Positions 2,568 to 58,149 of a stretch of DNA of 64,000 bases are shown here, piece after piece. The position numbers and the translations under genes were made by a program. Position 1 is the first letter of the stretch, and every line of letters starts with the position of its first letter. The notes under the pieces were generated by a model that was not told the DNA's origin, searched no databases, and saw nothing but the letters and a program-made list of their open reading frames with translations. Source of the DNA: a virus; UHGV virus genome UHGV-0218015, one strand, 5' to 3'.

Positions 2568-4208
2568 ATGGCAACTGTCAATAAAGACGCAATTCGTAAC
2601 CACATCTATAGCACAATCTCTAGTGGCCGCGACGAACTTTTATCATACCTTTGTAATCAAGCACGTGCTGCCGGAATGAATGACGACAAATACATGGATA
2701 ATGCTGTTACCGTCGCCACGTGGTTTGTATACAACCGTCGTCCAGATAACGAAACTGCATCGGCGATTCTGGCAACATTTAAATCGACGCTGTATAGTGA
2801 CTTACTGGGGCGTGGTATGCAGCCATTGGACCCGCGTATTCACAGCCAGCTGGAACAGGAATTCCGTACGGCGAATCAGTATGCGGTACAAGCTAAACAG
2901 CTTATGGGACATTCGAGCTCTTTCGCTGGCCCAACAATGCCCGCTTCGCCGAGCTTAGCGATGCCCGCGTCTAGCTTTACAGGCAGTGGCCACGGTAGCC
3001 CACGACCAGCAACAGCGGTAGAAGGGGGTTCTATCCCAATGTCAACTTACGATCCGCGCACAGCGGAACAGAAGCAAACAGCGCAACCGCAAGGTAACTT
3101 CGGTCAGCCTGCACAACAACCAGTGCAACAGGCACAGCTACAACCGACTGTTTCGCACTCTATGGTGGAAGCTAACAAGCCGCGTGAGCTCGACGAGAAA
3201 ACCATCGAAGAACTTGTCGAACGTTACAATAAACCTATCATCGATCATTTCCGGGTAGAAATTGTGGAAGACTATTTAGATCACGAACTTAGAGAACAGA
3301 TTAAGAAAAACATTCTTACGCCAAAAGAACTCAACGAACGCATCAAAAATTCACCGTATTCAAGCCACCGCAATTGGTCTGAAAAGGTTGACGAAATCAT
3401 CGATAATAAAGACATCGATTATTGCGTCTATGATGAAGCGGACGTGATGGTGAAAACCGAAAGCGAGTATAAATTGTTCCCGATGGTAAGTACGGACTCG
3501 AGCAAAACTTACCTTCAAGAATTTTATACCGCCACCCGTCAGGCAATTGATGGTATTGAAGACATTCGCGATATTGACGATCCGGAAGAGATGCTGAAGA
3601 ATACTATCGAAATGGTGTTCCACATCCGTAAAATGTCTGAATGCCTACTGCAATATTTCAATAGCCAGGCTGAGGAGCCAGAAACGTTGAAACAAAGCTG
3701 TGTGGAGTTCTGTCAGCAGTTTAACGCAACACTCACTGTTTTGGTTCACAACGCTATTTCTGTTGCGACAAACTACGGTAAAGGTATCCCAGGTACGAAA
3801 TTTGTGCAATTCGATTGCAACTTAAGCGATCTCGAATATTTCCGTGACACTCTGTTCCCGCGCACCATCGGTGAAAATGGCGTAACCACGGCTGCGGATT
3901 TCTTCCGCGAACTGTGCTTGCTGGTCGCACGTTCTGTTCGTAAGCTACATTTCCGTCTGAAATCTAACGATCATGCTATTGAAATTTGCCGCGTAACGTA
4001 CACCATTCAGCTGCCTGCGGATTATCCGTCTGCGAAAGGACGCAATATCGTAGAGATTTCCTCATTCGGTAATGCGTTTGAACCTATCGTCGGTATCTAT
4101 GAAGCAATTAACCAACGCGCACCTGAAGCTATTGTGAAGCTGGCTACGCCGTCGGCATCGTACACGCTGCTTAGCAATGGTGAAATTACCGCGCCGGTGC
4201 GTTACTAA
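2568..4208 (+). CDS. hypothetical protein (546 aa) with Q/P-rich linker
   Basis: ATG preceded by AGGAG-like SD; followed by a GC hairpin. Confidence 0.6.
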   Translation: MATVNKDAIRNHIYSTISSGRDELLSYLCNQARAAGMNDDKYMDNAVTVATWFVYNRRPDNETASAILATFKSTLYSDLLGRGMQPLDPRIHSQLEQEFRTANQYAVQAKQLMGHSSSFAGPTMPASPSLAMPASSFTGSGHGSPRPATAVEGGSIPMSTYDPRTAEQKQTAQPQGNFGQPAQQPVQQAQLQPTVSHSMVEANKPRELDEKTIEELVERYNKPIIDHFRVEIVEDYLDHELREQIKKNILTPKELNERIKNSPYSSHRNWSEKVDEIIDNKDIDYCVYDEADVMVKTESEYKLFPMVSTDSSKTYLQEFYTATRQAIDGIEDIRDIDDPEEMLKNTIEMVFHIRKMSECLLQYFNSQAEEPETLKQSCVEFCQQFNATLTVLVHNAISVATNYGKGIPGTKFVQFDCNLSDLEYFRDTLFPRTIGENGVTTAADFFRELCLLVARSVRKLHFRLKSNDHAIEICRVTYTIQLPADYPSAKGRNIVEISSFGNAFEPIVGIYEAINQRAPEAIVKLATPSASYTLLSNGEITAPVRY

Positions 4209-29522: not shown

Positions 29523-29549
29523 TTTGATATTTAGCTGTAAAATGACTGT

Positions 29550-29598
29550 CTACCGCCCGATTCTATGGGCGGTAGATGTTTTTTATTTTTTTTTGATC
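29550..29598 (+). terminator. rho-independent terminator
   Basis: ctaccgccc...gggcggtag then long T-run. Confidence 0.75.
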
Positions 29599-29610
29599 TG
29601 GGAGGCTATA

Positions 29611-30171
29611 GTGGCCACATACGTACCTGATTTAAGTCTGTCCTCAGCCGAATTGGTGGTCGCTTTAATCAACCACGATAACGGTTCACGGTTGTCTCTA
29701 AGCGAAATTCGTATTAGCAACACTATGGCAAACCTGTCCCCGACTACGTCGCGTCGTAACACACTGACAGAGATTACAAAAATCAGGAAACCTGATGGTG
29801 CTTCTGTAGTTGTTTATTACGACCGCTTGGATGCGGACAAAGTGTTAGCGTCCGAACCTATTTTGATTTCGTTAGATGGTACCGAAGACAACCTTCGTGA
29901 CATTTTAGGTGTTGTAAATGAATTCTGCGGAACGAACTTACAACCCGAGGATTTACATGCTTCAGATATCACTTTAGGTAACGATCCTATTGCTGTCAAC
30001 GTTGCTGACGATTCTCCAGCGTGGGTGAATGCGTTTATGGTGACGTTATTTGATAAAACTGAACGGGCATTAGCAAACGAAGAAGATGCAATCTTCTGTA
30101 TTGGTGACGATGCTGTTCTTACATTTGAGGTTCCAGATGGAGACTCCGCTGAAGAAAACCCGGCTACATGA
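29611..30171 (+). CDS. RBP-module accessory protein (paralog of 36262..36774)
   Basis: Track start 29524 lies inside terminator 29550-29598; GTG at 29611 after GGAGG is consistent with the paralog N-terminus (TYVPDLSLSS vs KFTPDLSLTS). Confidence 0.45.
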   Translation: MATYVPDLSLSSAELVVALINHDNGSRLSLSEIRISNTMANLSPTTSRRNTLTEITKIRKPDGASVVVYYDRLDADKVLASEPILISLDGTEDNLRDILGVVNEFCGTNLQPEDLHASDITLGNDPIAVNVADDSPAWVNAFMVTLFDKTERALANEEDAIFCIGDDAVLTFEVPDGDSAEENPAT

Positions 30172-30376: not shown

Positions 30377-33300
30377 ATGGCTAAAGCGGTAAAGAAAATA
30401 CGTTTACACGACTTACATCCGTACACCGGGGATATCGGTGAAGGCGTTTTACTTTTTTCGAAAGACGAAAAAGATTATAAGTTACCAGTCCGCGAGATCG
30501 TTGCGGACATTGACACCGTCAGAAGTGCGGTTGCTGATGCACAAACGGCTGCGGCCAAATCACAACAGTCCGCAACAGAAGCTACGAAAGCTAAAGATTT
30601 AGCAGAAACAGCGAAGCAACAGACCACCACTTTAGCTTCCACAGTTAATGAGCAAGCGGGAACCGTCGCCACTAAAACTGCGGAGGTTAACAAAAAACAC
30701 GCTGAAGTTTTAGCAGCGAAAACTGCCGTAGATACTGTTTCACAATCAGTAAATGAGAAGGCTCAAGCTGTCGCCGCAAGCGAACAATCTGTGACAGCTG
30801 TAGCGGCTGATGTAACTAAGAAAGCAGAAACGGTTACGCAACGGGCCGGACAGGTTCAACAGACCGCTACCAGTATCGCAAATACTGCGGCTTCAATTGA
30901 GGCCAGTAAGGGCGCGGTGGAGAAGGTTGCTGCGCAGGTTACGAAAGATAAAGAAAGCTCAGAAGGCGCAGCTACACGCTCGGAGTCAGCCGCTCTGCGT
31001 GCGGAGAAAATCGCTGCACAGGGTTTAGTTGACGCTAGTACGACCGGTAAAGGTATCGTTAAACTTAACAATACCCTGACTAGCGAATCCGTGACGGAGG
31101 CTGCCACACCGTCCACGGTTAAACAGCTGAACGACGAATTACAGTTAAAAGCCGATAAACATTCGCCGAATTTTACGGGTAACCCGACATCACCAACGCC
31201 TCCAAAGGACTCGAATGACACGAGCATCTCCACAACGGCCTGGGTGCGTGCTGCTATCGCGGAATTGGTTGGTTCTTCACCTGAGACGTTAGATACCTTA
31301 GCGGAATTAGCTACGGCGTTAGGTAATGACCCTAACTTCGCAACAACGATTACTGAGAAACTTGCACAGAAGCAACCTATCAGTCCACTACTTACTGCTA
31401 TTGCCGCAGTCACAACCGCAGCAAACAAGCTCCCTTATTTCACTGGCACTAATAAAGTCGGGTTAACTGACTTTACAGAAACCGCCAGAACCTTGTTAGC
31501 AAAAGGGACAACTGCGGATATCATCAATTTCTTGGGATTAAAAGCCACTGTAGATAAAGCGAACTCTGCGTTACAGAAAAACTCTAACGGTGCTGATATC
31601 CCCAATAAAGAAACCTTTGCTCGCAATATTGGTCTATCTCCTGATACCTATCTGCGTTTCCGTGGTGAAATGCCCGCAGATGCTGATATTAACACATTTG
31701 CTCCAGATGCCAATTACACAGGAACATGGTCCAAGTCGACATCAACAAACGCATCGATAGCAAAACACTTCCCGGAAGACGGTGCGGTAGGTTATCTAGA
31801 AGTGTATAAAGCGGGCAACTACAGTGGAGCGCAACGTTTTACCTGCCGTAATGGTAACGTGTACAACCGCATGTTGTCAGCCGCGTGGAACGGAACTAAT
31901 GGCCCGTGGTCACCGTGGAGAATGGTAACTACAGGTGTACGCCCGTTATCTACATCGATCGATCTGAACTCCTTAGGCGGCGCTGAGCACATGGGTAACT
32001 GGCGTAACTCGTCCAGTTCGTTAGCGGTGTTCGACAGACATTATCCTGAAGAGGGCGGTAATGCGCAAGGCGTATTAGAAGTCATGGAAGGCGGTCTTTA
32101 TGGACGTTTACAACGTTACACCACTCGTCGTGGTACGATGTATGTCCGTGGTTTGACTGCGACTTGGGATTCGTCTAATCCGCAGTGGGAAGATTGGATT
32201 CAGGTTGGGTATCAGGTAGACGGTGCCTACTATAAGGGTAGCTTTAACGACTTAACTAAACCGGGTCGCTTTAGTGTTACCGGCGAGGCTACAGACGGTC
32301 CGTTAACAGACTCTGCTGGCGCAACCTTGCTAGGCGTTTGCGAAGTTACCTTACGCTTAGACGGTTCAGGTGTTGAACAAAATTATACCACATACGGTAC
32401 AGGCGCAACTTCGAAAGGTCGCAAGTTCCAACGAATTCGTACAGGAAATGCCTGGAGCGAATGGCGAGAGATTTTCACATCCTATTCACTCCCGTTGGCT
32501 TTAGGGATCGGTGGGGTTGCTGCTAAGGTAGATCCGTTAGACTGGCAAACCTTCGACTTCGTTCCTGGCCAGATGATAAGTACACCATTGAATACCATGA
32601 AAAACATTCCTGCGGGAATGGATTGGGGTGTTATCGACGGTAACTTGGTTACTATTCTTGTAGGGGCGTCGGAGGACACCGGTACTGGCCGGAGTATGTT
32701 GGTCTGGCGTGGTACAGTGTCTACTGCTAACTATCGCTTCTTTGCTGTTCGCGTCGCTGGTGAAAAGGGTAAACGTACTATTACTAGCCGCCAGATGCCC
32801 GTATTGAATGCAGCGCATACGTGGGCAGAAAAACAGACCTTTGCAAAAGGGTTATCAGGTGAGTTAACAGGCAATGCTGCTACGGCAACGAAACTGAAAA
32901 CAGCCCGTTTAATCGGCGGTGTAAGTTTCGACGGTAGCGGAGACATTAGCCTCCCTGGTGTAAACCAACAGGGTAATCAAAACACCTCTGGGAACGCGGG
33001 AACCGCAACCAAATTACAAACGGCTCGAAACATCAACGGTGTGAAATTTGATGGGTCTAGAGACATCAATATCAACACGTTGGTAGGACGTGGACGTGTT
33101 ACTGCACTGACTGGATCAAACAAAGGTACACCCGGTATTCAGATGTACGAAGTTTACAATAACGGTTATCCAACCGCTTATGGTAACTTACTGCATTTGG
33201 GCGGTTCTGCTGCGCTAGGCGAAGGGGAACTGTTAATCGGATGGTCGGGGACGAGCGGTGCGCACGCACCCGTTTATATTCGTAGTCGACGTGATACTGC

Positions 33301-34816
33301 TGATGCGCCGTGGTCAGATTGGGCACAAGTTTATACTGCCCGTGATAGCATTCCTGGTGTAAATGCCACAGGTAATCAGGATACTACCGGCAACGCCGCT
33401 ACCGCGACGAAACTGAAAACCGCTCGCAGGATCGGAGGCGTTAGCTTTGACGGTACAGGTGATATCAATTTACCGGGCGTTAACCAGCAAGGCAACCAGA
33501 ATACGACAGGTAATGCAGCGACCGCTACTAAGTTACAAACCGCACGTAAGATCGGCGGTGTGGTGTTCGATGGGACAAAAGACGTTAATCTTCCTGGTGT
33601 AAACCAAACCGGTAACCAATCGACTACGGGGAATGCGGCGACAGCGACTAAGCTACAGACTGCTCGAAATATAGGTGGCGTAGCTTTTGATGGTACTAAA
33701 GACATCAGTTTACCTGGAGTAAACCAAACAGGGAATCAGTCGACCACCGGAAACGCAGCCACGGCAACAAAGTTGCAAACCGCAAGAACCATCAATGGTA
33801 TTGCGTTTGATGGCACTAGAAATATATCGTTAGGGCCAGCCGAAATAGGTTGTCCGGCATCACCTAGTGGTTGGTTAGAAACTGGCGCTAATGGCGGTGC
33901 AATAACTACAGCACAGCTAGTGACGTTATTGAAAAATAACGGCGCATTTACCACAAGATCGTGGGTTGCTCGCTGTGCGTGGGCTTATGCCGCCAGTGCG
34001 TCCATACCTCACAGCGAGACGGGTTGTGGTGTCATTCCGTTAGCTGGGGCCGTTATAGAAGTCATTAGTAACGGCAACAGCACAAACAACTACACGATCC
34101 GTATAACGACCGCCACAACGACGAGCGTCGGCGGAGCACTCACTAATGCGGAGTTTATCTACGTATTTAACGGCGATGGATACTCACCAGGCTGGCGTCG
34201 TGCTTACAATACGAGAAACAAGCCAACTGCTGCGGAAGTGGGCGCGTTACCGTCAGGGGGCGGTACTGTAGGCGGTGATTTAACCGTTAATGGTAAATTG
34301 GCCACTAAATACCCTGATTTTCGAATCGCTTACGGTACCTACGGTTTTATTTTACGTAACGACGGTGCCAATACCTATTTCTTAGTAACCGACGCCGGAC
34401 AAGCCGCAGCGGGTTCCTGGAACGGATTACGCCCGTTGTCTTTTAATAATTCTAACGGCCAAGTAAACTTTGGACATAACGTTACTGGCAACGGTAACGG
34501 TTCGTTTAACGACGTACAGATTCGTTCTGACCGTCGTAACAAACGTAATCTGGTGAAGCTGGATAAAGCTTTGGATCGGTTAGAGTTACTAACCGGTTAT
34601 TTGTACGAAATTCAGCATCCTGATGACGGTTGGCAGACTTCTGTAGGTCTAATTGCTCAGGACGCATTAGAAGCGTTACCTGAACTTGTGTCAGAGGACG
34701 ACGATGCCATTTCAGGCGAAAAACGTTTACGTCTAAATTACAATGGCGTTATTGCGCTGTTAGTAGAGGGTATGAAGTCTCTTCGCCGAGAGCTTAAAGA
34801 ACTCAAGGGGAATTAA
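30377..34816 (+). CDS. tail fibre protein with C-terminal S74-type intramolecular chaperone
   Basis: 1479 aa; Ala-rich N-terminal region, TLDTLAELATALGNDPNF tail-fibre motif, six ~40-aa repeats (GNAATATKLQTAR..GGV.FDG), C-terminal SDRRNKRNLVKLDKALDRL...YNGVIALLVEGMKSL matching the autoproteolytic chaperone. Confidence 0.8.
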   Translation: MAKAVKKIRLHDLHPYTGDIGEGVLLFSKDEKDYKLPVREIVADIDTVRSAVADAQTAAAKSQQSATEATKAKDLAETAKQQTTTLASTVNEQAGTVATKTAEVNKKHAEVLAAKTAVDTVSQSVNEKAQAVAASEQSVTAVAADVTKKAETVTQRAGQVQQTATSIANTAASIEASKGAVEKVAAQVTKDKESSEGAATRSESAALRAEKIAAQGLVDASTTGKGIVKLNNTLTSESVTEAATPSTVKQLNDELQLKADKHSPNFTGNPTSPTPPKDSNDTSISTTAWVRAAIAELVGSSPETLDTLAELATALGNDPNFATTITEKLAQKQPISPLLTAIAAVTTAANKLPYFTGTNKVGLTDFTETARTLLAKGTTADIINFLGLKATVDKANSALQKNSNGADIPNKETFARNIGLSPDTYLRFRGEMPADADINTFAPDANYTGTWSKSTSTNASIAKHFPEDGAVGYLEVYKAGNYSGAQRFTCRNGNVYNRMLSAAWNGTNGPWSPWRMVTTGVRPLSTSIDLNSLGGAEHMGNWRNSSSSLAVFDRHYPEEGGNAQGVLEVMEGGLYGRLQRYTTRRGTMYVRGLTATWDSSNPQWEDWIQVGYQVDGAYYKGSFNDLTKPGRFSVTGEATDGPLTDSAGATLLGVCEVTLRLDGSGVEQNYTTYGTGATSKGRKFQRIRTGNAWSEWREIFTSYSLPLALGIGGVAAKVDPLDWQTFDFVPGQMISTPLNTMKNIPAGMDWGVIDGNLVTILVGASEDTGTGRSMLVWRGTVSTANYRFFAVRVAGEKGKRTITSRQMPVLNAAHTWAEKQTFAKGLSGELTGNAATATKLKTARLIGGVSFDGSGDISLPGVNQQGNQNTSGNAGTATKLQTARNINGVKFDGSRDININTLVGRGRVTALTGSNKGTPGIQMYEVYNNGYPTAYGNLLHLGGSAALGEGELLIGWSGTSGAHAPVYIRSRRDTADAPWSDWAQVYTARDSIPGVNATGNQDTTGNAATATKLKTARRIGGVSFDGTGDINLPGVNQQGNQNTTGNAATATKLQTARKIGGVVFDGTKDVNLPGVNQTGNQSTTGNAATATKLQTARNIGGVAFDGTKDISLPGVNQTGNQSTTGNAATATKLQTARTINGIAFDGTRNISLGPAEIGCPASPSGWLETGANGGAITTAQLVTLLKNNGAFTTRSWVARCAWAYAASASIPHSETGCGVIPLAGAVIEVISNGNSTNNYTIRITTATTTSVGGALTNAEFIYVFNGDGYSPGWRRAYNTRNKPTAAEVGALPSGGGTVGGDLTVNGKLATKYPDFRIAYGTYGFILRNDGANTYFLVTDAGQAAAGSWNGLRPLSFNNSNGQVNFGHNVTGNGNGSFNDVQIRSDRRNKRNLVKLDKALDRLELLTGYLYEIQHPDDGWQTSVGLIAQDALEALPELVSEDDDAISGEKRLRLNYNGVIALLVEGMKSLRRELKELKGN
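32833..33072 (+). repeat. in-frame 120-bp coding repeats, copies 1-2 (tail fibre)
   Basis: Units begin cctggtgtaaacc; encode GNAATATKL.TAR..GGV.FDG. Confidence 0.6.
33353..33832 (+). repeat. four tandem 120-bp coding repeats (tail fibre)
   Basis: Unit starts at 33353, 33473, 33593, 33713; protein-level conservation with synonymous divergence. Confidence 0.7.
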
Positions 34817-34821
34817 AGATA

Positions 34822-34848
34822 GGGGGAGTAATCCCCCTAATTTAGTTT
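34822..34848 (+). terminator. terminator candidate after tail fibre gene
   Basis: aggggg-agtaat-ccccct then aatttagttt. Confidence 0.4.
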
Positions 34849-34857
34849 GGAGGATTT

Positions 34858-35403
34858 ATGGGGGTAGCATCCGGCTGGGTTGGAAGCTCAGCAAAGGCAG
34901 TAACCGGTCAGGAGTGGATGAGTGTGGCAGGTAATAAGCTTAAACTGAGCACGCCATTTAACATGTCGCAGATGGTCGGGCGTAGCGTAGAGGATCTTAA
35001 ACTCGTTGTAGGCCGATCAACCTATGTTGTTTTGGTGCAGGCTACGAACACGCAGTGGGTTCCTATTACAAATACGTATGGGGGGTATTCGAACAACTCT
35101 ACAACAACGGGTGCTGGTTCTACAGTATCGAATCGTGTGCAAACACAAAATGCGGCCGGTTCGGTGTCAGGTTCGATCTTGGGTTGTAGCGTCACACATC
35201 TTAGCCAAGTACAAAATACTGGTATTATCTACATGGCCCTAACCAATGGACCAAATCAGAATATTACGCTTTCGTTTAACGGAACGAAGATTACTTTTCT
35301 ACCGTACTCCTACAGTAACGGCGTCCGGCGCTATGAGGCTAAGACGGCAACCAACTGGTTATTTAATCAGAACGGTGCAACAATTTCAATAAGTGTAGTC
35401 TAA
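34858..35403 (+). CDS. tail-fibre-associated protein (paralog of 35657..36163)
   Basis: N-terminus MGVASGWVGSSAKAVTGQEWMS matches the paralog; sits immediately after the fibre gene. Confidence 0.45.
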   Translation: MGVASGWVGSSAKAVTGQEWMSVAGNKLKLSTPFNMSQMVGRSVEDLKLVVGRSTYVVLVQATNTQWVPITNTYGGYSNNSTTTGAGSTVSNRVQTQNAAGSVSGSILGCSVTHLSQVQNTGIIYMALTNGPNQNITLSFNGTKITFLPYSYSNGVRRYEAKTATNWLFNQNGATISISVV

Positions 35404-35413
35404 GGACAGAAAG

Positions 35414-35644
35414 ATGTTAAGAAAAGTTTTACTGGGTTTCGCATTGCTTACAGTAAGTGGATGTCAACAACTACCCGAACCTGTATGTTACGGCACAGCT
35501 AAGCTGGGTAATGAAGAGACTACGATCAATATTTTCGACGTAAAAAAGCAGGGCAGATACACACTTTATAAAGCTGATCATCATTATAATTGGCGTTGGG
35601 TTGGGCGTGGTGCTTTCGATTCAATAACATGTAGAAAATCTTAA
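35414..35644 (+). CDS. small lipoprotein
   Basis: Signal peptide with lipobox LTVSGC; 76 aa. Confidence 0.5.
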   Translation: MLRKVLLGFALLTVSGCQQLPEPVCYGTAKLGNEETTINIFDVKKQGRYTLYKADHHYNWRWVGRGAFDSITCRKS

Positions 35645-35656
35645 CAGGAGATCGCG

Positions 35657-36163
35657 ATGGGGGGGGTAACCGGTTCGTGGGTCGGTTCTTCGGCCAAGAA
35701 CGAAACGGGCGAACAATGGATGAGCGCTGCTGGTAGTAAATTAGGATTGGGTAGACCTTTTATGATGAGTCAAATGGTGGGACGATCTATGGGCTGTAAA
35801 ATTGCAACCGCTGCATATAGCGATTCTTTAGGTAAGAAATGGGGCGCAGTAGGACCAAGCTGGCCGTTAAACCAGAAAAATCAGGGAACCATTCAAAACG
35901 CGGGTAACTGCGGGGTGGGAACTTTAGTAGGTATTGAGTTACAGTTAACGACGATAGTTGCCAACGCAAAGCCTACTTTAGCGGTTTACTTACAAGGAGG
36001 CAGAGCCTCTAACATTACCGTAAATTTAGGTGGTAACACCTGCGCGCTGGCCTATCAGCAGGTTATTAACGGACAGCATTATTACTGGACTAATAACATC
36101 AGCGCTGCGTTCCAAAACGTGATGAAATCGACAGGCGCACTGCGTGATTTGAGAATTAGCTAA
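35657..36163 (+). CDS. tail-fibre-associated protein (paralog), G8 tract at codons 1-4
   Basis: ATG GGG GGG GTA start; N-terminus matches 34858 gene. Confidence 0.45.
   Translation: MGGVTGSWVGSSAKNETGEQWMSAAGSKLGLGRPFMMSQMVGRSMGCKIATAAYSDSLGKKWGAVGPSWPLNQKNQGTIQNAGNCGVGTLVGIELQLTTIVANAKPTLAVYLQGGRASNITVNLGGNTCALAYQQVINGQHYYWTNNISAAFQNVMKSTGALRDLRIS
35659..35666 (+). repeat. G8 homopolymer at codons 1-4 of the 35657 gene
   Basis: atgggggggggta; the paralog at 34858 has only G5 here. Confidence 0.7.
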
Positions 36164-36197
36164 TTATTTTCAACTGAAAGCGGTTGAAAATAATCGT

Positions 36198-36207
36198 GGG
36201 GGGGGGG
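36198..36207 (+). repeat. G10 homopolymer in 5' region of the 36262 gene
   Basis: Preceded by AT-rich hairpin ttttcaac...gttgaaaa (36167-36190). Confidence 0.7.
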
Positions 36208-36261
36208 TGAATGTTTTTTAGTCAATATTTTATGACCCCCAACCGTAGGAGGTAAACATAC

Positions 36262-36774
36262 GTGGAAAAATTCACACCAGATTTATCACTAACTTCACTT
36301 AACATGGTTATTTCACTGGTTAACCATGACCTCCAACTTGACTTGCAAGAGAACGAGGTTGAAGTCAGTGACGTAAAAACCAGTGATGAAATGGATCGTG
36401 ACTCCACTGCCATTGTAAAGATTAAACGTCCTGGAAACAGAACGTTGCAAATCTACTACAACCGTTTAACCGCAGAGCGGTGGTTAAACCAACAACCTAT
36501 TCTGGTAAAAGTAAGAGGTGAAGGGTTTAATGCACACGATCTTATCGAATCCGTCAATGCCGTTTGTGGTGCTAACTTACAAACCGACGATTTAACCGAC
36601 CAGTCGTTCACGGTAGGTAAAGACGCGGTAACGCTTAGCATCGCTCCGAATTCCATCGCTTATAAAGGACAGTTCTCCGTGGTGGTTTTCGGCCCAGATG
36701 AAACACCGTGTGGCATCGGTGATGATTCTGTCGTGTTGACGTTTGACAATAAAATCTTAACTTTTGGAGAGTAG
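36262..36774 (+). CDS. RBP-module accessory protein (paralog of 29611..30171)
   Basis: GTG start after AGGAGG; sits directly upstream of the second RBP gene. Confidence 0.45.
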   Translation: MEKFTPDLSLTSLNMVISLVNHDLQLDLQENEVEVSDVKTSDEMDRDSTAIVKIKRPGNRTLQIYYNRLTAERWLNQQPILVKVRGEGFNAHDLIESVNAVCGANLQTDDLTDQSFTVGKDAVTLSIAPNSIAYKGQFSVVVFGPDETPCGIGDDSVVLTFDNKILTFGE

Positions 36775-36777
36775 TAG

Positions 36778-38898
36778 ATGAGTCAGCCAATTGGAAAGAA
36801 ACGTATCCATGAACTCGACAATTTCTCTGGCGATCTCAAAGGTGCGTTAGTTCTTCTTTCTAAGGAAGAAAAAGAATATAAAATTGATATTGCAAAACTT
36901 CAGGGCACGACGGAGCCGGAGTATTACTTCGTGATTCCTATAGCCGGGCAATCTAATGCGATGAGTTATGGTGAAGGGTTGCCTCTACCGGCGACGTTGG
37001 ACGCTCCCGATCCGCGAATTAAACAGATGGCGCGCCGTGCGAAGGTAACGCCTAATGGGGCTGATTGTAAATATAACGACGTCATTCCAGCGGATCACTG
37101 TCTGCACGACGTGCAAGATATGTCCAAATACTCGCATCCCAATGCCAATTTGAGCAAAGGTGAATACGGATGTGTGGGTCAAGGTCTACATATCGCGAAG
37201 CGTCTTCTCCCGTATATTCCTAAGAACGCCGGTATCTTACTAGTACCCTGCGCACGCGGCGGTTCTGCTTTCACGGGTGGTGCAGAAGGTACCTTCGATG
37301 AAGCCACAGGAGCCACTGAGTCGTCAATGCTATGGGGGGTGGAGAAACCGCTTTATAAAGATTTAGTTAGCCGGACCAAAAAAGCTCTAGAAGTTAATCC
37401 TAAAAATAAACTCTTGGCTGTAGTGTGGATGCAGGGAGAGTATGATCTGACTAAAGTACAATACGCACAACAACCAGCGTTATTTAACGCAATGGTAGAG
37501 CGTTTCCGAACTGATCTCTCTGACCATCTCTCTCAGATGCCCGAGTACGACACCGCCGAAGTACCATGGATCTGCGGGGACACTACCTATTATTGGAAGG
37601 AAAAATATCCTGCCCAATATGAAACCGTATACGGTAATTATCGTAACAATGAACAAAAAAATATCTTTTTTGTTCCATTCATGTACGACGATAATGGCCA
37701 ACGTGTACCGACTAATGATCCCACTGACGATCCTGATATCACTGGTGCGGCCTATTACGGTGCTGCCTCCCGTACTGTTAAAAACTGGACGTCTGAAACA
37801 AGGAATAGCCATTTCAGTTCTTGGGCACGACGCGGTATTATCTCAGAGAGAATAGCTGCCGAGATATTATCAAGAACAGCGATTGGTGCAATGTTCCTGA
37901 CGAAGAACGACACTAAGAGCTCCAAAGACAATAAGAATGTGGTAAGAAGCTATACCCCATTAGTAGAGTCTGTGGGTTATAACGGACGTCGTGGGGATGG
38001 TTCCCTGAAAGGGCAAGGTTGGAACAATATCGTTGATTGTAACGTAACCGTGCAAGATTCTGAGGATGGAAACGGGCATTTCGTCGAATTAAGAAAGGCT
38101 GTAAAGATGAAACCTTGGAATGTAACTAAGTCAATGACATCTGCTGCGGACATGATACGTTACGGTGGACGTCTGACCGTTACTTTTAGACTAAAAGGTG
38201 ATTTAGCAGCAGATCGTTTCGGATTAGGACTTTATTGGCGTATTTCCGCGTCCGACCTACCTTCTGGTACTACATTTGCTGACGCTGGTGTGGCTGAGAC
38301 GAACCCGTACCTAATGTCTTTTTTCTTACAGACCGACGCTACGAATCTTAATCTGATGCATCATAAAAAGCAAAATGCGAAATTAGGAACTTTTGGTGCG
38401 TACGATAATAACTGGCATACGCTTGAAATCATTTATCCTGGTGCCAATAAAACCACAGTCACACCTGTGCTGGACGGTACGAATGGTACTCCATTTGATC
38501 TGGCGAACAGTCCAGCTAAGACCGATTTGAACGAATTGGTTCTGACGGATATTACGAAAGTTACTGCCTATGATATCGATATTTCTAAGTTTGAGATCTC
38601 GGTCAATCGTGATTCTGGTAGCATAGTGTTATCTGAGGAAGATGTGTCGTCTTATGTGTATTTCCCACCCACCAACCGTGGCGGCCAACTTACTATTCCT
38701 GATCTAGAATATAGTGTGGGCAGAAATATTCAGATCGTGGCAAATAAGGCTGGTAAGATCACCGTTAAACCGGAAAATTCAAACGTTCTCATCACTCCAA
38801 AGAGTGGGACAGAAGGTCTTGCCAAACCCATTGATACCAATGAAAGTATTACGCTAATGCAGATTGGTTCCGATGGTAAAAGCTGGGTAGTTATTTAA
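36778..38898 (+). CDS. tailspike/RBP with SGNH (SASA-type) esterase domain
   Basis: N-terminal ~35 aa shared with the fibre at 30377; then IPIAGQSNAMSYGEG resembling the GQSN block of sialate O-acetylesterase/SGNH hydrolases. Confidence 0.55.
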   Translation: MSQPIGKKRIHELDNFSGDLKGALVLLSKEEKEYKIDIAKLQGTTEPEYYFVIPIAGQSNAMSYGEGLPLPATLDAPDPRIKQMARRAKVTPNGADCKYNDVIPADHCLHDVQDMSKYSHPNANLSKGEYGCVGQGLHIAKRLLPYIPKNAGILLVPCARGGSAFTGGAEGTFDEATGATESSMLWGVEKPLYKDLVSRTKKALEVNPKNKLLAVVWMQGEYDLTKVQYAQQPALFNAMVERFRTDLSDHLSQMPEYDTAEVPWICGDTTYYWKEKYPAQYETVYGNYRNNEQKNIFFVPFMYDDNGQRVPTNDPTDDPDITGAAYYGAASRTVKNWTSETRNSHFSSWARRGIISERIAAEILSRTAIGAMFLTKNDTKSSKDNKNVVRSYTPLVESVGYNGRRGDGSLKGQGWNNIVDCNVTVQDSEDGNGHFVELRKAVKMKPWNVTKSMTSAADMIRYGGRLTVTFRLKGDLAADRFGLGLYWRISASDLPSGTTFADAGVAETNPYLMSFFLQTDATNLNLMHHKKQNAKLGTFGAYDNNWHTLEIIYPGANKTTVTPVLDGTNGTPFDLANSPAKTDLNELVLTDITKVTAYDIDISKFEISVNRDSGSIVLSEEDVSSYVYFPPTNRGGQLTIPDLEYSVGRNIQIVANKAGKITVKPENSNVLITPKSGTEGLAKPIDTNESITLMQIGSDGKSWVVI

Positions 38899-50572: not shown

Positions 50573-51103
50573 ATGGCTAAAACTTTTCAACAGCAGCTTA
50601 TCGAACTTATTAACACTAAAAACAGCTCTCTGAGCTCCGCTCTCACCGTAGCTGATGTTGACTTTAGTGCTGTCGCTGACTTCACCGGAGAAGCTGGCCG
50701 CAACACTAAAATTACTCTGACCGCCAAGGCAGAAAGCCAGAACTTCAAAGGCGAGAAAGAATTCCACTATACTCGTCTTTCCTGCGACATCGTTGGTGAA
50801 GTTGAAGTAACTGCACCTACTACCGATTTCGATTCACCAACGAAAATCCTGGCAAAAGTTAACGCAGCCATGGCTGAGAAAGGGTACACCGATGACGAGT
50901 TCGGTGAAAACGACCTGCAAACTATTTCCCGTGAAGAAGAAGGCAAAACCATTTACGTAGTAACTGTTGTGGCTGGACACCTGAAGTTCCTGCCAGGTAC
51001 TGTTGCAACGTATAAAGTTACTCCTCCGGCTATTGAGAAAGTAGTATTGAACGGTTTGGAAGGTGAACTGGATGGCTTCACCGCACCAGCGCCTAAAGAG
51101 TAA
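50573..51103 (+). CDS. hypothetical protein, four-gene family member
   Basis: AGGTAAAAAACA-ATG; QQQLIELINTKN...; C-terminal GELDGFTA shared with next gene. Confidence 0.5.
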   Translation: MAKTFQQQLIELINTKNSSLSSALTVADVDFSAVADFTGEAGRNTKITLTAKAESQNFKGEKEFHYTRLSCDIVGEVEVTAPTTDFDSPTKILAKVNAAMAEKGYTDDEFGENDLQTISREEEGKTIYVVTVVAGHLKFLPGTVATYKVTPPAIEKVVLNGLEGELDGFTAPAPKE

Positions 51104-51110
51104 TTGATTC

Positions 51111-51119
51111 GGGGGGGGG
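51111..51119 (+). repeat. G9 homopolymer in intergenic hairpin
   Basis: Between the two four-gene-family members. Confidence 0.7.
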
Positions 51120-51170: not shown

Positions 51171-51701
51171 ATGGCAGCTACTAACCAGATGATGTTAGTT
51201 GCGCTTTATAATGCTGCTAACACAGAGCTACCGCATCAGGTCACTGATAAAGAGGTAACTTTTGGTCAACCTGTCGCTCTTGAAAAGGGCGATAAAAATA
51301 CCAAAGTTACCATGACCGCACGTACAGAGTCTGAAAATTTTAAAGGCGCAATCGAACTGCATTACGATCGTCTGGAACCTGGCGTTATCGGACGCATTGA
51401 GGTAACGGACGATTTGGCTCTCTGGACTGGAGAAAACGAACTACGCGACCGATTACAGTTCTACATCAATAAAGTAAAACCTGACGACTCTATCGCGCCT
51501 GGTGACGTTGAGTACACCACCGAAGACCAGAAAGACGAACACGATAGCGTCACTCTGCGTACGGTAACTTGTACCGTTACTGAAAAGAACCTCCGTTATA
51601 AACCGGGTGTAATGGCAACTTTCGTAATTACGCCGAAAGTTGTTGATAATCGTATTGACCTGGCCACCACCGACGGTGAACTTGACGGCTTTACTGCTTA
51701 A
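51171..51701 (+). CDS. hypothetical protein, four-gene family member
   Basis: Paralog of 50573 (ENFKGA.ELHYDRL, GELDGFTA); bidirectional terminator follows. Confidence 0.5.
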   Translation: MAATNQMMLVALYNAANTELPHQVTDKEVTFGQPVALEKGDKNTKVTMTARTESENFKGAIELHYDRLEPGVIGRIEVTDDLALWTGENELRDRLQFYINKVKPDDSIAPGDVEYTTEDQKDEHDSVTLRTVTCTVTEKNLRYKPGVMATFVITPKVVDNRIDLATTDGELDGFTA

Positions 51702-52445: not shown

Positions 52446-52993
52446 TCATCTTCTCCTTTAACTAAACCTAGCTCAATTAACAATTCAAAATCGATTTGGC
52501 GAAATTTGTTATCAAAACCAGAATCCCAATCGATGTGTAATCCTTGTCGTTCTTCATCGGTAAGTTCAGGATAAATTAAATCATGGAACGCTTCACGTTC
52601 CTCGTAAAATCCATCGATAGTAGAATCTGGATTCCGCATTGCGTAAATCGTGATGCCCGGAAAGGATAATCCTAATGCTGTTATAGATTCGACGCTTGGT
52701 TCTTGCAAGGCCCTGCGTAATAGCACGATTTTATGTCGTGGAAAATCTAGTACACGTTGTTCAAACCCAGGATTCCGTTTCTCAATTTCTGTAACTGAAA
52801 GATCGGTGAGTTCTGTGCAATACATTGGGATAACTACAGTTACTCCGTGGCGAATTAATAATCGTTTAACATCGTCAGTGAAGTCTTCACCATTAATTTG
52901 CACATAACAACCAAACAATTTTGTAGTTTCTAAAAATTTTTCCAGAAAACGGAATTTACGCTTCGTAATATTGTGGATCAGAATTGGCTTCAT
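52421..52993 (-). CDS. hypothetical protein
   Basis: ORF overlapping both neighbours. Confidence 0.45.
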   Translation of the reverse strand: MKPILIHNITKRKFRFLEKFLETTKLFGCYVQINGEDFTDDVKRLLIRHGVTVVIPMYCTELTDLSVTEIEKRNPGFEQRVLDFPRHKIVLLRRALQEPSVESITALGLSFPGITIYAMRNPDSTIDGFYEEREAFHDLIYPELTDEERQGLHIDWDSGFDNKFRQIDFELLIELGLVKGEDECLLLTKA

Positions 52994-54278
52994 CTTTGGT
53001 TTCTCTCAATTGTTTTTCTTTCTGGGTACGTTCACGTACGCAACGAGGGCAATAACACATGCTATTGTCATGAAAATCTTTCACTGACGTCGTGCCCATT
53101 TTCTGTTTCCAATATTCCGCAACCATCAACTTTGCAGTTGTCCAGCCGCATTGACGGCGTTCAGCGTGATAAGCTTTGCGATCTTCTAGCGTCCCTTCTC
53201 CATTCTCGTAAGATGCAGCCGCACAACTACCACAAGCGTGCTTCATTGGACAACCTAAACAGGTTTCAGGATAGTTGGTGTATTGCGTCTGAATCTCTTC
53301 CAGCAATTTCCCGTCATCTAAGCTAACGAATTCCCGGCCAACTAATTCAAATACGGCAGAACGTGATGTTACGGTTGACATGAAACGGTTACAACCGAAG
53401 ATCTTACGATCAAATCCTAAGCAGGTCATGTGTGTTAACGTACCGCAGAACGGGCGTAAACGTTCTGGATTCAAACGTACAGTATCGTTATACAATAACT
53501 GATCACGCCAGTTTGGTTCCCAGATAGTATCAAAATCTAACCCGTCTGGAATGATGTGCGACAAAGTGTTACGTGGGTTGGTGTGTAAGCCCTTCTCAAC
53601 CCAATAATCAACCACGTCCATCATCTGCAATGCGATTGAAGTAGCCATGCTCCGTGGCATAATGTCTTCGAAGGTTACGTTGCCAGAAATAGTTCCGCCG
53701 CCAGTAATATCAATTAATGATTTCATTCCAGCAGCATAGAACGGTAACGTTTCCAACGTAAAGGTCGCTTTTACACCAAGTTCTGCAATACCGACTTCTT
53801 TTAAGTAGTTATAGCCCCGCACAGCGGCCTCGTAAGATCCTTCACGAGTTGTTGTAAAAATCCGGTACTTATCGTGCGATTCGGGCAATCCATCAATAGA
53901 CACGCCGATAGAAAGCCTGTCTTTCCAACGTTCAATAATTTCTCTATTCAAAGGTCTATCTAACAACGTTCCGTTAGTAGAGATGCTAAACATAAACGGC
54001 CGATTATGTTTTTCGCATAACTCTTCTGCGGTTTCAAATGCCGCCTTTAATAGTTTAGGCTGCATAAACGGCTCACCACCGATGATATCGATAACGACCT
54101 CGATGTTTGTCAGATCTTTATCTCGTTCAAAACAAGCGTGTAGAAAATCAACAATATCCGCCGCTTTGTTATTACGGGGATACTTACGTTCGTAACAATA
54201 CTCACAGTCCAAGTTACACGATAAATTTGTAACAATTTGATAAGTCAGTTGTTTTGGATAACTATTTTCTTGACTCAT
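52956..54278 (-). CDS. radical SAM enzyme with SPASM-type C-terminal domain (anSME-like peptide maturase candidate)
   Basis: N-terminal CNLDCEYCYE (CxxxCxxC), GGEP; C-terminal Cys clusters CLGCPMKHACGSC and CYCPRC typical of SPASM/twitch domains. Confidence 0.75.
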   Translation of the reverse strand: MSQENSYPKQLTYQIVTNLSCNLDCEYCYERKYPRNNKAADIVDFLHACFERDKDLTNIEVVIDIIGGEPFMQPKLLKAAFETAEELCEKHNRPFMFSISTNGTLLDRPLNREIIERWKDRLSIGVSIDGLPESHDKYRIFTTTREGSYEAAVRGYNYLKEVGIAELGVKATFTLETLPFYAAGMKSLIDITGGGTISGNVTFEDIMPRSMATSIALQMMDVVDYWVEKGLHTNPRNTLSHIIPDGLDFDTIWEPNWRDQLLYNDTVRLNPERLRPFCGTLTHMTCLGFDRKIFGCNRFMSTVTSRSAVFELVGREFVSLDDGKLLEEIQTQYTNYPETCLGCPMKHACGSCAAASYENGEGTLEDRKAYHAERRQCGWTTAKLMVAEYWKQKMGTTSVKDFHDNSMCYCPRCVRERTQKEKQLRETKDEANSDPQYYEA

Positions 54279-55200
54279 TTTCCGCCCCTCTATTACGCTC
54301 TGCCATCACTACACGACGAATGTACTCGTAAGCTTCTACACCTATTGAGGAGGCTAGTTGGTTACACCCTGCTTTTGTAGTTATTGGTACATTTTTAAGT
54401 TGGTTTTCTTCCCCGTCCGCGTCTATCCTGAGACTTTCGCTACAGACATTACAAGCATGATCGAAGAATCTGTTTACAATAAAACCGCAGTCTCTAGAAT
54501 TTAGAACGTTTAATCTTTCTATATTCTCCTGAATTCTAAAATACCCGTAAATAAAGTTCATAACGTGATCGGGAGATAACGGTTTTGGCATGTTTTTATC
54601 TAGTAATAAGGACATGGAACGAAAACCGTAATGATAGATAGCAGTATGTAATTGAATGATATCTTCATGCCATCTTTTGTTGGATAAATTCTCCCTCGTA
54701 ACAACAGCCCAAGTGTTAACATTATTCAAGCTGTAAATTACTTCTAACGCTTCATGACAATTATCATCAATAAAGCGCTTAAAAGGCCGTTCGGAAAGAT
54801 TAAACCCATCGATGCTAACATATATAGCATCGAATTGTTTTAACAACGGTAGATGCGATTTACGCATTTTTAAACCGTTCGTGAACATCTGGTGTTTGAG
54901 TTCAGGACGGATCGTTTTTAATTCGTCGACAAACGCCTCAATCTTTCGAGTTGCCAGTAGCGGTTCACCGCCAGTCCACTGAATTTCAGTAATGGTTGGG
55001 TTAGACGCCAACGCTTTCAAAATTCGTTCACGTTGAAACTCTCGCGGAGAATCTTCACGATGCATGTAATAGGCTCCGCCGCAGAAGCTACAGTCCAGAT
55101 TACATTTGGATGTAGCAACTACGGACAATACGGTGGGTTTATTGTATAAACGATTCGATAACCTTGGCTCTACGTCGGTTGTCATTGCAGGTGAGTCCAT
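54262..55200 (-). CDS. radical SAM enzyme (paralog B)
   Basis: TSKCNLDCSFCGG and GGEPLL; paralog of 57235..58149 with identical DNA blocks. Confidence 0.7.
   Translation of the reverse strand: MDSPAMTTDVEPRLSNRLYNKPTVLSVVATSKCNLDCSFCGGAYYMHREDSPREFQRERILKALASNPTITEIQWTGGEPLLATRKIEAFVDELKTIRPELKHQMFTNGLKMRKSHLPLLKQFDAIYVSIDGFNLSERPFKRFIDDNCHEALEVIYSLNNVNTWAVVTRENLSNKRWHEDIIQLHTAIYHYGFRSMSLLLDKNMPKPLSPDHVMNFIYGYFRIQENIERLNVLNSRDCGFIVNRFFDHACNVCSESLRIDADGEENQLKNVPITTKAGCNQLASSIGVEAYEYIRRVVMAERNRGAENESRK
54514..54597. repeat. 84-bp block identical to 57478..57561
   Basis: Identical string inside radical SAM paralogs B and A; two more shared blocks of ~38 and ~54 bp near 54838/57813 and 55081/58025. 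Confidence 0.7.
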
Positions 55201-56107: not shown

Positions 56108-56626
56108 TTATTTTACGGTCAATCTGACGTTCAAGGTATAGAACCCGCCACGCCATTGCCTGCCGGTAACTTCAAATTCTGCAGTAAAGCCGTTTGATTT
56201 ACTCGGTTGCTGCTTAATCGCCATGCTTCCGCCGGAATTACTTAATACTTCTAATGAGATAGAAGCAGAAGATGCATTACCGATAGAGTCTATCTTAAAA
56301 CTAGCCGCGTCTGTAAAATTAACAGTGATACCATTACCCATTGCAACTTGAGGGTAGGCGTAGGACTTTCCAGACAGTAACGATTTAAAGACCCTTATCG
56401 GTTTCTCTCTACCGGTTGACGTTACGCATTGAATAAAGACAGCCCCAGTAGAGAAATTGATACGAACAGTATCTTTAGCGTGTAGCTTAGACTCAACATA
56501 AACAACGGCTTTGTTGTCGTAGGTTGGTCTTGAAGGGGTTGGCGTAGAACCACCGCTAGAGGGCTTACTTACCCCCCCCCGCCCCCTTACTACAGCTACC
56601 GCTGCACGACCAACTACATCCGCCAT
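56108..56626 (-). CDS. beta-rich domain protein, possibly expressed as a fusion to peptide P3
   Basis: Annotated ATG lies inside the P3 coding region; body is +1 relative to P3 across a G9 tract; Pro/Ser/Thr/Gly linker then beta-rich sequence. Confidence 0.4.
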   Translation of the reverse strand: MADVVGRAAVAVVRGRGGVSKPSSGGSTPTPSRPTYDNKAVVYVESKLHAKDTVRINFSTGAVFIQCVTSTGREKPIRVFKSLLSGKSYAYPQVAMGNGITVNFTDAASFKIDSIGNASSASISLEVLSNSGGSMAIKQQPSKSNGFTAEFEVTGRQWRGGFYTLNVRLTVK

Positions 56627-56774
56627 TACAATTATAATGACTTAAAGGTAATCCTGCGAGATTGTTGGTTGAGGAAACCGTTCCTTGGTTTGCAATATAG
56701 TTGTTTGCATTAGCGGTGGTGATATATCCCTCCGCCGTTACTAATCTGTCGCGTATGTTTTTAAGACTTATCAT
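56565..56774 (-). CDS. Cys-rich precursor-like peptide P3 (69 aa)
   Basis: Leader ISLKNIRDRL and core NCNGGCSWSCSGSCS similar to P1/P2; ends in the G9 tract. Confidence 0.55.
   Translation of the reverse strand: MISLKNIRDRLVTAEGYITTANANNYIANQGTVSSTNNLAGLPLSHYNCNGGCSWSCSGSCSKGAGGGK
56572..56580 (-). repeat. G9 homopolymer on the coding strand at the P3 / beta-domain junction
   Basis: Minus-strand reading aag ggg gcg ggg ggg ggt aag taa; a G5 run lies just 5' of it. Confidence 0.7.
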
Positions 56775-57234: not shown

Positions 57235-58149
57235 TTATCGTAGTTTTTCTGAGACTCTATTCTTAGCCCCTACCACACGACGTATATAGTCGTAAGCATC
57301 TAATCCAACCTTTCTGGCCAAGTCACTACAGCCGTGTTGCGTTACGATTTCAACGTTCTTTACTTGGTTCTGGGCACCGTCAGACTCAATGCGAAAACAA
57401 CGACTACATGTGTTACAGGGTTCATCAAATAACGCATTTAGCGTAAACGCACATTCACTTCGATTGGACGAATTCAGTCTTTCTATATTCTCCTGAATTC
57501 TAAAATACCCGTAAATAAAGTTCATAACGTGATCGGGAGATAACGGTTTTGGCATGTTTTTGTCCAAAACCAGCGACATCTCACAAAAACCATAATGGTA
57601 AATGTGGTTATGTAACGCAATTATATCTTCGTACCAACGTTTATCCCCAATACGCTCGCGTGTCAAAACCGCCCAAGTACGAATATTTTTCAATTCGTAA
57701 ATTGTCTCCAAAACCTCGTATTGTTTTTCTTCGATAATCCGCATGAACGGACGCTCTGATTCTTTGAATCCATCCATGCTAAAAAAGATACTATCAAAAC
57801 CCTTTAACAACGGTAGATGCGATTTACGCATTTTTAAACCATTGGTATACAGGTAATGTTCGCAACGAGGATACTTCTCCCTTATCTCTTCTATAAGGGT
57901 ATCAATTTTACGCGTGGCAAGTAATGGTTCGCCCCCTGACCATTGGATATTTGTGATAGTCGGGTTATTTTCCAGCGCCTCGATAATACTTTCCTTTTGT
58001 ACTTCTGCGGTTGTATCCTCTCTATGCATGTAATAGGCTCCGCCGCAGAAGCTACAGTCCAGATTACATTTGGATGTTGTAATCACGTTTAACGTTCTCG
58101 GATTACTGTAAAGCTTATCGGATACCGTCGGTCTAGTAAGTTCTTCCAT
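57235..58149 (-). CDS. radical SAM enzyme (paralog A)
   Basis: TSKCNLDCSFCGG and GGEPLL; C-terminal CNTCSRC. Confidence 0.7.
   Translation of the reverse strand: MEELTRPTVSDKLYSNPRTLNVITTSKCNLDCSFCGGAYYMHREDTTAEVQKESIIEALENNPTITNIQWSGGEPLLATRKIDTLIEEIREKYPRCEHYLYTNGLKMRKSHLPLLKGFDSIFFSMDGFKESERPFMRIIEEKQYEVLETIYELKNIRTWAVLTRERIGDKRWYEDIIALHNHIYHYGFCEMSLVLDKNMPKPLSPDHVMNFIYGYFRIQENIERLNSSNRSECAFTLNALFDEPCNTCSRCFRIESDGAQNQVKNVEIVTQHGCSDLARKVGLDAYDYIRRVVGAKNRVSEKLR
57478..57561. repeat. 84-bp block identical to 54514..54597
   Basis: See partner copy. Confidence 0.7.

Follow-up and report, generated by a model that had tools for sequence, protein, structure and literature searches.

The adhesin-2 gene and its G8 tract

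In a 64,000-nucleotide stretch of the virus genome UHGV-0218015 (hereafter the window), which belongs to a ~225-kb jumbo phage of Enterobacteriaceae, the gene of a 168-residue gp38-type tail-fibre adhesin has a run of eight G residues that begins in its start codon. The gene lies at 35657..36163 on the plus strand; we refer to it as adhesin 2 and to a paralog upstream of it as adhesin 1. A sequence-only reading of the window had placed it in the receptor-binding region as a tail-fibre-associated gene, and the domain searches agree with that placement. Pfam Gp38_N (PF21721) matches residues 3-41 with E=1.3e-18 and 67.1 bits, against a gathering score of 25, and the full-length match is to the short family phrog_1121, 'tail fiber adhesin' (6.6e-44). 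A tblastn search with the adhesin matched 828 phage records, the best of them from Stx phages and T-even-like phages, where the gene is labelled 'tail fiber adhesin' or 'receptor recognizing protein Gp38'. By these homologies, the gene product is predicted to be a receptor-binding adhesin of the gp38 type. Stx phages and 109-kb plasmid-like records also carry the short phrog_1121 type. The 168-residue sequence has none of the poly-glycine motifs of the T2/S16-type receptor domain, and a PDB sequence search with it returned zero matching chains. Two relatives (L004 and L005) encode a separate T2-type gp38 with glycine-rich motifs upstream.

The start of the gene, 35657-35668, is ATG GGG GGG GTA. 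The G8 tract, 35659..35666 on the plus strand, starts with the third base of the ATG and takes in codons 2-3 and the first base of codon 4. The bases read directly from 35643-35674 are ...AACAGGAGATCGCG ATG GGG GGG GTA ACC GGT..., and the start codon is fixed as the ATG at 35657 because a Shine-Dalgarno AGGAG, seen in the same read at 35646..35650 on the plus strand, sits 6 nucleotides upstream. The tract is thus exactly where the sequence-only reading had it, and so is the shorter one described for the paralog, which opens at 34858 with ATG GGG GTA and has a G5 at 34860-34864. The Gp38_N alignment begins at residue 3 in adhesin 2 and at residue 1 in adhesin 1, and an alignment with six homologues places an extra Gly in the window protein only. 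Therefore, the G8 is the family's usual ATGGGGGTA plus one GGG.

Long G/C runs exceed chance in the window. The 8-mers GGGGGGGG occur 8 times, in 4 tracts, where dinucleotide-preserving shuffles give 0.38 +/- 0.66. There are 4 G/C runs of at least 8 against 0.56 expected for independent, identically distributed bases, and the probability of 4 or more is 0.003. Placement of the adhesin-2 tract in the 5' untranslated region of an alternative start was ruled out, the body frame having no other start by in-silico translation. With a fold z of 0.15, the idea that the coding tract acts as an RNA structure or as an attenuator was rejected.

Adhesin 1 (181 residues, 34858..35403, plus strand) carries Gp38_N at residues 1-40 (E=2.4e-20) and also belongs to phrog_1121. 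By BLASTP, it is 67% identical to adhesin 2 over the N-terminal 43 residues, with nothing significant beyond. From the shared N-terminus and the unrelated C-terminal domains, we infer two adhesins with one attachment (fibre-docking) module and different receptor-binding parts. Both genes are downstream of the gene for a long tail fibre of 1479 residues (30377..34816, plus strand), which matches Pfam Gp34_trimer, Phage_fiber_2 and a C-terminal Peptidase_S74 as well as tail-fibre PHROGs. Relatives keep the order of an S74 fibre followed by one or two Gp38_N genes. This fibre, with its S74 intramolecular chaperone, is presumed to be the docking partner of the adhesins.

The docking-domain segment itself has an unusual distribution. 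The 135 bp at 35678-35812, which code for Gp38_N, are 96% identical to Escherichia phage CMS-2020a (L001, CP054387.1), with unrelated flanks. The same 96% identity is found in plasmid-like records of E. coli O104:H4 and Shigella sonnei (H78-H84, H86-H87), mostly of ~107-110 kb and in one case of 66.5 kb. By this pattern, the segment looks like the product of recent recombination between unrelated phages.

Tract length, reading frame and conservation among relatives

Each tract length was translated in silico, and ON and OFF below refer to the predicted reading frame. G8 gives MGGVTGSW... (168 residues) and G11 gives MGGGVTGSW... (169 residues); both are ON. G9 gives a 26-residue out-of-frame peptide and G10 stops at MGGG, because a TAA directly follows the tract; both are OFF. 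For G9 and G10, no ATG, GTG or TTG occurs upstream in the body frame before a stop. The proposal that gain or loss of a single G would turn the gene off therefore holds in silico for G9 and G10, and the gene calls on natural contigs agree: 168 residues for G8, 169 for G11, and 124 from the internal Met45 for G9 and G10. The 124-residue product would be without the Gp38_N domain.

To be compared with the window, near-identical genomes were collected by exact look-ups of its Cor and DUF7941 proteins, encoded on either side of adhesin 2, with 24 contigs read per look-up. This yielded 13 distinct ~225-kb contigs, each from another sample. Against 34262-37644 of the window they are 98.6-99.9% identical with at most 2 gap openings each. 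Across the window and the 13 contigs, the tract is G8 in two genomes (the window and one contig), G9 in three, G10 in six and G11 in three. The sequence-only reading had named constancy across related phages as the outcome that would speak against a switch; the tract varies from G8 to G11. In a 3.3-kb alignment of 12 of these genomes, gaps occur only at 35658 (the adhesin-2 tract), at 36197/8 (an intergenic tract) and at 37333 (a G6 in an esterase gene). As controls, the adhesin-1 G5 is 5 and a G6 at 35080 is 6 in all 14 genomes, and A6 and T6 runs are constant wherever scorable. G6 runs show one change in 26 scored instances; the G6 at 37334-37339 in the SASA-esterase gene is G7 in one contig (L073, ERZ28647640), splitting the 706-residue gene into 193 + 533 residues; slippage at this shorter run is rarer.

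Among pairs of haplotypes with zero substitutions over 3.2 kb, five of seven differ in the length of the adhesin-2 tract. On identical backgrounds, the window has G8 and contig c3 G10; c1 has G8 and c12 G9; c4 has G10 and c11 G11; and c5 has G11 and both c6 and c8 G9. Therefore, the tract changes faster than one substitution per about 3 kb. That ON and OFF each occur as two lengths on shared backgrounds implies repeated steps, and the tract appears to have changed length many times independently.

A larger count of alleles came from exact-protein look-ups in a 15-billion-protein collection, which covered 73 contigs. The 168-residue protein (G8) is encoded on 12 of these and the 169-residue protein (G11) on 6; OFF-type calls account for the rest, 54 with 124 residues and 1 with 147. 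For a G5 and for a G14 version of the allele, the look-ups in the collection returned 0 contigs. The ON state thus makes up 5/14 by DNA and 18/73 by protein look-up (25-36%), and OFF, at about 64-75%, is the commoner consensus state.

Downstream of the tract, 13/13 near-identical genomes, the nine OFF ones included, keep the 165-codon body intact, as do 11/12 more distant relatives. The exception, at 1501-2002 of L044 (CYGL01000001.1), has a G5 start and a frameshift about 24 codons into the body (MSAAGR*); this sole disruption in 25 genomes may mark a true pseudogene or come from faulty assembly. Pairwise ratios of nonsynonymous to synonymous divergence (dN/dS) in the body are 0.06-0.22, including comparisons among long-tract lineages. 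Pseudogene decay was ruled out by the intact body together with these ratios. For a gene that is mostly out of frame and yet apparently under purifying selection, a reversible switch is a better fit than loss.

In more distant relatives, the start of the gene takes several forms. G5 is found in L004, L006, L037, L038, L043, L044, the E. coli 98232 record and phage CMS-2020a, G4 in Stx phage P13374, and G3 in L040. The run is interrupted as ATGGCG or ATGGCT in L003, L022, L041 and the Enterobacter ludwigii record. Long tracts reappear as G8 in L005 and as G9 in L039, the latter out of frame with a TAA upstream; the L039 allele body is itself on record with G5, with G8 and in truncated form. A Salmonella Enteritidis protein (P0015) is a read-through product implying G9, the tract states of P0015 and P0020 being deduced from the protein N-termini. 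Truncated JGI/IMG calls (P0041) may reflect a gene-caller difference and were left out of the OFF evidence for the L005 lineage. By synonymous divergence (dS), the nearest relatives outside the window's clade, at 0.09-0.15, are of the G5 or ATGGCG types, and L005 is farther at 0.43; therefore, the long tract arose or was transferred at least twice. Every long-tract lineage also has a second Gp38_N gene upstream. This is compatible with switching off being affordable when another adhesin remains, the number of lineages being small.

A candidate adhesin switch and its alternatives

We think it likely that translation of adhesin 2 is switched on and off by slipped-strand mispairing in its G run, so that populations always hold both ON and OFF genomes. 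Mispairing during phage DNA replication would alter the length of the run. Adhesin 1, with its stable G5, would always be made, and adhesin 2 would be made by the ON subpopulation only. Virions from ON genomes would carry adhesin 2 on the long fibre, beside or instead of adhesin 1, and its presence would alter adsorption or host range. A lysate or a persistent infection would then hold virions with and without adhesin 2, a bet-hedging mix renewed every few generations. In this scheme, docking of adhesin 2 on the 1479-residue fibre in competition with adhesin 1, and an adaptive role in host-range switching, are inferred.

Several points weigh against this scheme. Domain homology is the one basis for the docking step, and the AlphaFold model of adhesin 2, built from a 7-sequence alignment, is poor (predicted local distance difference test score of 50.7, with the N-terminal 60 residues below 50). 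The comparison contigs are assemblies, many from one cohort, and are not fully independent. The share of ON genomes is no different from the 1/3 that neutral drift of the length would give (p=1.0 by DNA, 0.14 by protein), and therefore there is no signal of selection on the state. Finally, 4/4 of the G/C runs of at least 8 in the window vary, two of them in intergenic hairpins (described below). Instability is therefore general to this phage's long G runs, which weakens the claim that the adhesin-2 tract is specially evolved.

The last two of these points are also what would be expected if the tract were a neutral slippage hotspot, a tolerated by-product of the replication machinery in a gene that is dispensable in the gut. 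The OFF majority, the one slip in the esterase-gene G6 that split its gene, and the long G/C runs that relatives carry in nearby hairpins or in the Shine-Dalgarno region (C9 in L037, G10 in L041) point the same way. The intact body in every near-identical OFF genome and the low dN/dS are awkward for a dispensable gene unless the OFF state is transient. In addition, 73/73 allele contigs have calls consistent with a long tract, 13/13 contigs read as DNA show an uninterrupted G8-G11, and expansion at this site is seen in at least two lineages. A long run is also not the default in such genes, since runs of at least 6 are under-represented in the tail-fibre genes of the BASEL coliphages (bioRxiv 10.1101/2025.10.21.683753). 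On balance, we consider neutral slippage rather unlikely.

That the variation comes from homopolymer miscalls in short-read assemblies of a tract whose real length is fixed appears extremely improbable. It is true that poly-G of 8-12 is error-prone in library PCR and sequencing, and the comparison sequences are all assemblies. Nevertheless, the consensus length differs among 13 complete ~225-kb contigs from various assemblers and sources (scaffold, k141, Logan), while G5, A6 and T6 are constant and G6 changed once in 26. The values are four in number rather than +/-1 about one mode, both in-frame lengths recur (G8 on 12 contigs, G11 on 6), and isolate-derived NCBI records of another lineage (P0015, P0042) behave alike. 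Tuning of dose is a further possibility and is compatible with the switch. Long homopolymers can cause transcriptional slippage, and if RNA polymerase or ribosome slippage partly restored the frame, tract length would set the dose of adhesin 2, which would explain common OFF genotypes with a conserved open reading frame (ORF). This is very unlikely in our estimation: known bacterial slippage sites are mostly A or T runs, the G10 tract runs straight into a stop, and the region is without notable RNA structure.

The candidate adhesin switch resembles several known systems. Bacterial contingency loci include poly-G/C phase variation in surface genes of Campylobacter, Haemophilus and Neisseria. 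They work by the same mechanism and likewise place a homopolymer close to the start of an ORF for a surface-interaction protein; here the tract is virus-borne and replicated by phage machinery. Alternative receptor specificities arise from one genome by DNA inversion in Mu (Gin) and P1 (Cin) and by the diversity-generating retroelement of BPP-1. The outcome can be likened to the one proposed for adhesin 2, but those phages rely on site-specific recombination or on mutagenic retrohoming; beside the adhesin-2 locus, the window encodes neither an invertase nor a reverse transcriptase.

The closest parallel is in phages of Campylobacter. As relayed in PMC10579305 and bioRxiv 10.1101/2025.10.21.683753, poly-G tracts of 7-11 Gs make receptor-binding proteins of Fletchervirus phase-variable (Sorensen et al. 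2021, Cell Rep 35:109214). The two systems share poly-G in a receptor-binding gene, a mixed phage population and several tracts per genome. They differ in that here the phage is a ~225-kb jumbo phage of Enterobacteriaceae, the gene belongs to a family of short gp38-type adhesins, the tract starts within the ATG, the docking domain is shared with a stable paralog, and the variation is known from population genomics. No Campylobacter phage appears among the ten of 29 organism groups listed in the tblastn summary for the adhesin, and the resemblance is in mechanism, not ancestry. A-runs in T2 agt and T4 rIIA have also been described as contingency loci, with mutant frequencies of about 1e-3 that the authors read as bet-hedging (Gomez, Barrick & Waters, bioRxiv 10.1101/2025.10.21.683753). 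There, too, +/-1 homopolymer frameshifts create standing diversity, but in A runs of defence-evasion or lysis-timing genes; here G runs in an adhesin gene leave the consensus out of frame in most genomes. Relative to the gp38 tail-fibre adhesins of the T2/T6/S16 type (Pfam Gp38_N; Dunne et al. 2018, as cited in PMC10579305), adhesin 2 has the same N-terminal fibre-attachment domain and the same gene position 3' of the long-fibre gene. It differs in being only 168 residues long and in lacking a receptor domain with glycine-rich motifs, and the fibre here carries an S74 chaperone domain.

Our literature searches found no report of such a poly-G tract for either gp38-type adhesins or enterobacterial jumbo phages, and as far as the literature found shows, this is the first in either. 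In the papers found, poly-G phase variation of receptor-binding proteins is described for Campylobacter phages only. What stands out here is that the tract overlaps the start codon, that a stable paralog shares the docking domain, and that OFF is in the majority in population data. Host range and adsorption decide whether a phage persists in a microbiome and whether it succeeds in therapy, and here the consensus genome does not predict which adhesins the virions carry. Most natural genomes of this phage have adhesin 2 out of frame and yet apparently kept ready to switch back. Annotation pipelines truncate or miss it in most genomes, as in the 124-residue calls from an internal Met. The system is testable, for the tract can be locked ON or OFF, and the lineage is on record as ~222-kb extrachromosomal elements in culturable E. 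coli and Enterobacter.

Neighbouring genes, other long G tracts and related phages

The adhesin genes sit in a tail-fibre cassette. Its order is the long fibre, a terminator-like hairpin with G5/C5 arms (34820-34839), adhesin 1, a Cor-like gene, adhesin 2, a two-hairpin element with a G10, a DUF7941 gene, and a fibre or spike gene with a SASA-esterase domain. The Cor-like protein, a predicted superinfection-exclusion lipoprotein of 76 residues (35414..35644, plus strand; phrog_1119, 1.3e-25), has the lipobox LTVSG|C and is encoded between the two adhesins. The DUF7941 virion protein (36262..36774, plus strand, GTG start) and the SASA-esterase protein (706 residues, 36778..38898, plus strand) were assigned by Pfam and PHROG. 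There are four DUF7941 'virion structural protein' paralogs in the window, at 29524-30171, 36262-36774, 50573-51103 and 51171-51701. Two of them are directly 5' of a fibre or spike gene, and the N-termini of those two fibres are alike (MAKAVKKIRLHDLHPYTGD... and MSQPIGKKRIHELDNFSGD...). The DUF7941 and fibre pairs suggest repeated adaptor-plus-fibre modules.

Read on the sense strand of the surrounding genes, all four long tracts in the window are poly-G, and two of them form the 5' arm of intergenic hairpins. The G10 at 36198..36207 (plus strand) is in the two-hairpin intergenic element at about 36163-36245, and varies from G9 to G11 among the near-identical genomes. The element spans the interval from the adhesin-2 stop to the ribosome-binding site and GTG start of the DUF7941 gene and has an RNA fold z of -3.8. 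Its sequence, AATCG(G)nTGAAATGTTTTTAGCCAACATTTTAYGTCTCCCC with G9-G10, is kept in the diverged L003, L005, L006, L040, L043 and L091. This element may act as a terminator of variable length or as a 5' leader that controls the next fibre module. Use of its G10 as the spacer of a sigma-70 promoter was ruled out, as no promoter-like site spans the tract. Between the tandem DUF7941 genes at 50573..51103 and 51171..51701 lies a terminator-like hairpin, in which the G9 at 51111-51119 is the 5' arm and CCCCC the other, followed by a U-rich tail. The run is G9 in the window and G10 or G12 in five Logan contigs encoding an identical upstream protein.

The fourth tract, C9 at 56572-56580 (G9 on the minus strand), lies in a minus-strand locus at 56108-56774. 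In relatives it is G9-G11 on the minus strand, plus one interrupted copy. A 69-residue minus-strand ORF, MISLKNIRDRL...HYNCNGGCSWSCSGSCSKGAGGGK, ends exactly at the G9, which is followed by TAAGTAAG; its C-terminus is rich in Cys, Ser and Gly. With G9 or G10, the small ORF gives a free peptide of 68/69 residues, with gene calls of 172, 96 or 77 residues for the part downstream; G11, seen in L082, fuses the small ORF to the downstream body as a protein of 222 residues. The locus lies amid three radical-SAM genes (52956..54278, 54262..55200 and 57235..58149). By its gene content, it looks like a precursor of the ribosomally synthesized and post-translationally modified peptide (RiPP) type with its maturases, and with a poly-G toggle, in a jumbo phage.

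That variable tracts are found throughout the phage also hints at a multi-locus system. In such a poly-G 'phasevarion', at least four conserved and independently varying tracts would generate combinatorial phenotypes of virion and host interaction, and the OFF majority would be selected during long-term carriage rather than arising by drift. One tract may gate the alternative adhesin. Two lie in structured intergenic elements before DUF7941 genes, one of which is then followed by a fibre or spike gene. The fourth may toggle the Cys-rich RiPP-like product between a free 68-residue peptide and a 222-residue fusion near three radical-SAM enzymes. Selection for the OFF majority may be, for example, against over-adsorption or self-adsorption. 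Taken as a whole, we regard this extension of the adhesin switch as distinctly improbable.

The phage has no close cultured relative in the GenBank collection searched. Megablast of the locus against 50,697 GenBank phages returned a 135-bp patch only, and the best matches among GenBank phages are about 75% identical over about 1 kb, in jumbo phages of Salmonella and Erwinia of ~240 kb. When IMG/VR was scanned for the exact pattern of the 3' flank, it gave 0 matches; relatives were found by protein search and by exact look-up of neighbouring window proteins. The close ones are contigs of 220-228 kb from IMG/VR and metagenomes. Two relatives (L091 and L092) are deposited as complete circular plasmids, NZ_CP173450.1 (E. 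coli 98232, 221,873 bp) and NZ_CP134650.1 (Enterobacter ludwigii, 222,441 bp), labelled 'non-mobilizable plasmids' and derived from clinical and wild-bird isolates. Isolate assemblies of Salmonella, Shigella and E. coli also encode proteins of the adhesin cluster. 'Persistent virulent jumbo phages' have been described as residing inside bacterial assemblies (bioRxiv 10.1101/2024.12.31.630880), and the plasmid-like records and isolate assemblies fit that lifestyle.

Long runs also occur elsewhere around the adhesin genes of relatives. In L041, which has an ATGGCG-type start, a G10 occupies the Shine-Dalgarno position (AACAGGGGGGGGGGTAATGGCG, about 1470-1500). In L037, which has a G5 start, a C9 is in the hairpin preceding the adhesin-2 orthologue (about 1450-1480). 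In five prophage-derived IMG/VR sequences, L021, L023, L025, L026 and L029, a run ...TTTTCTCC(G)nCCGGCAAGAGC... around position 4071 is G9, G7, G6, G8 and G10, respectively. These loci have the Stx-phage-type adhesin (59% identical), and the run lies about 560 nucleotides 3' of the gp38-like gene, amid small ambiguous ORFs, one of which has a CxxCxxCC motif on the opposite strand.

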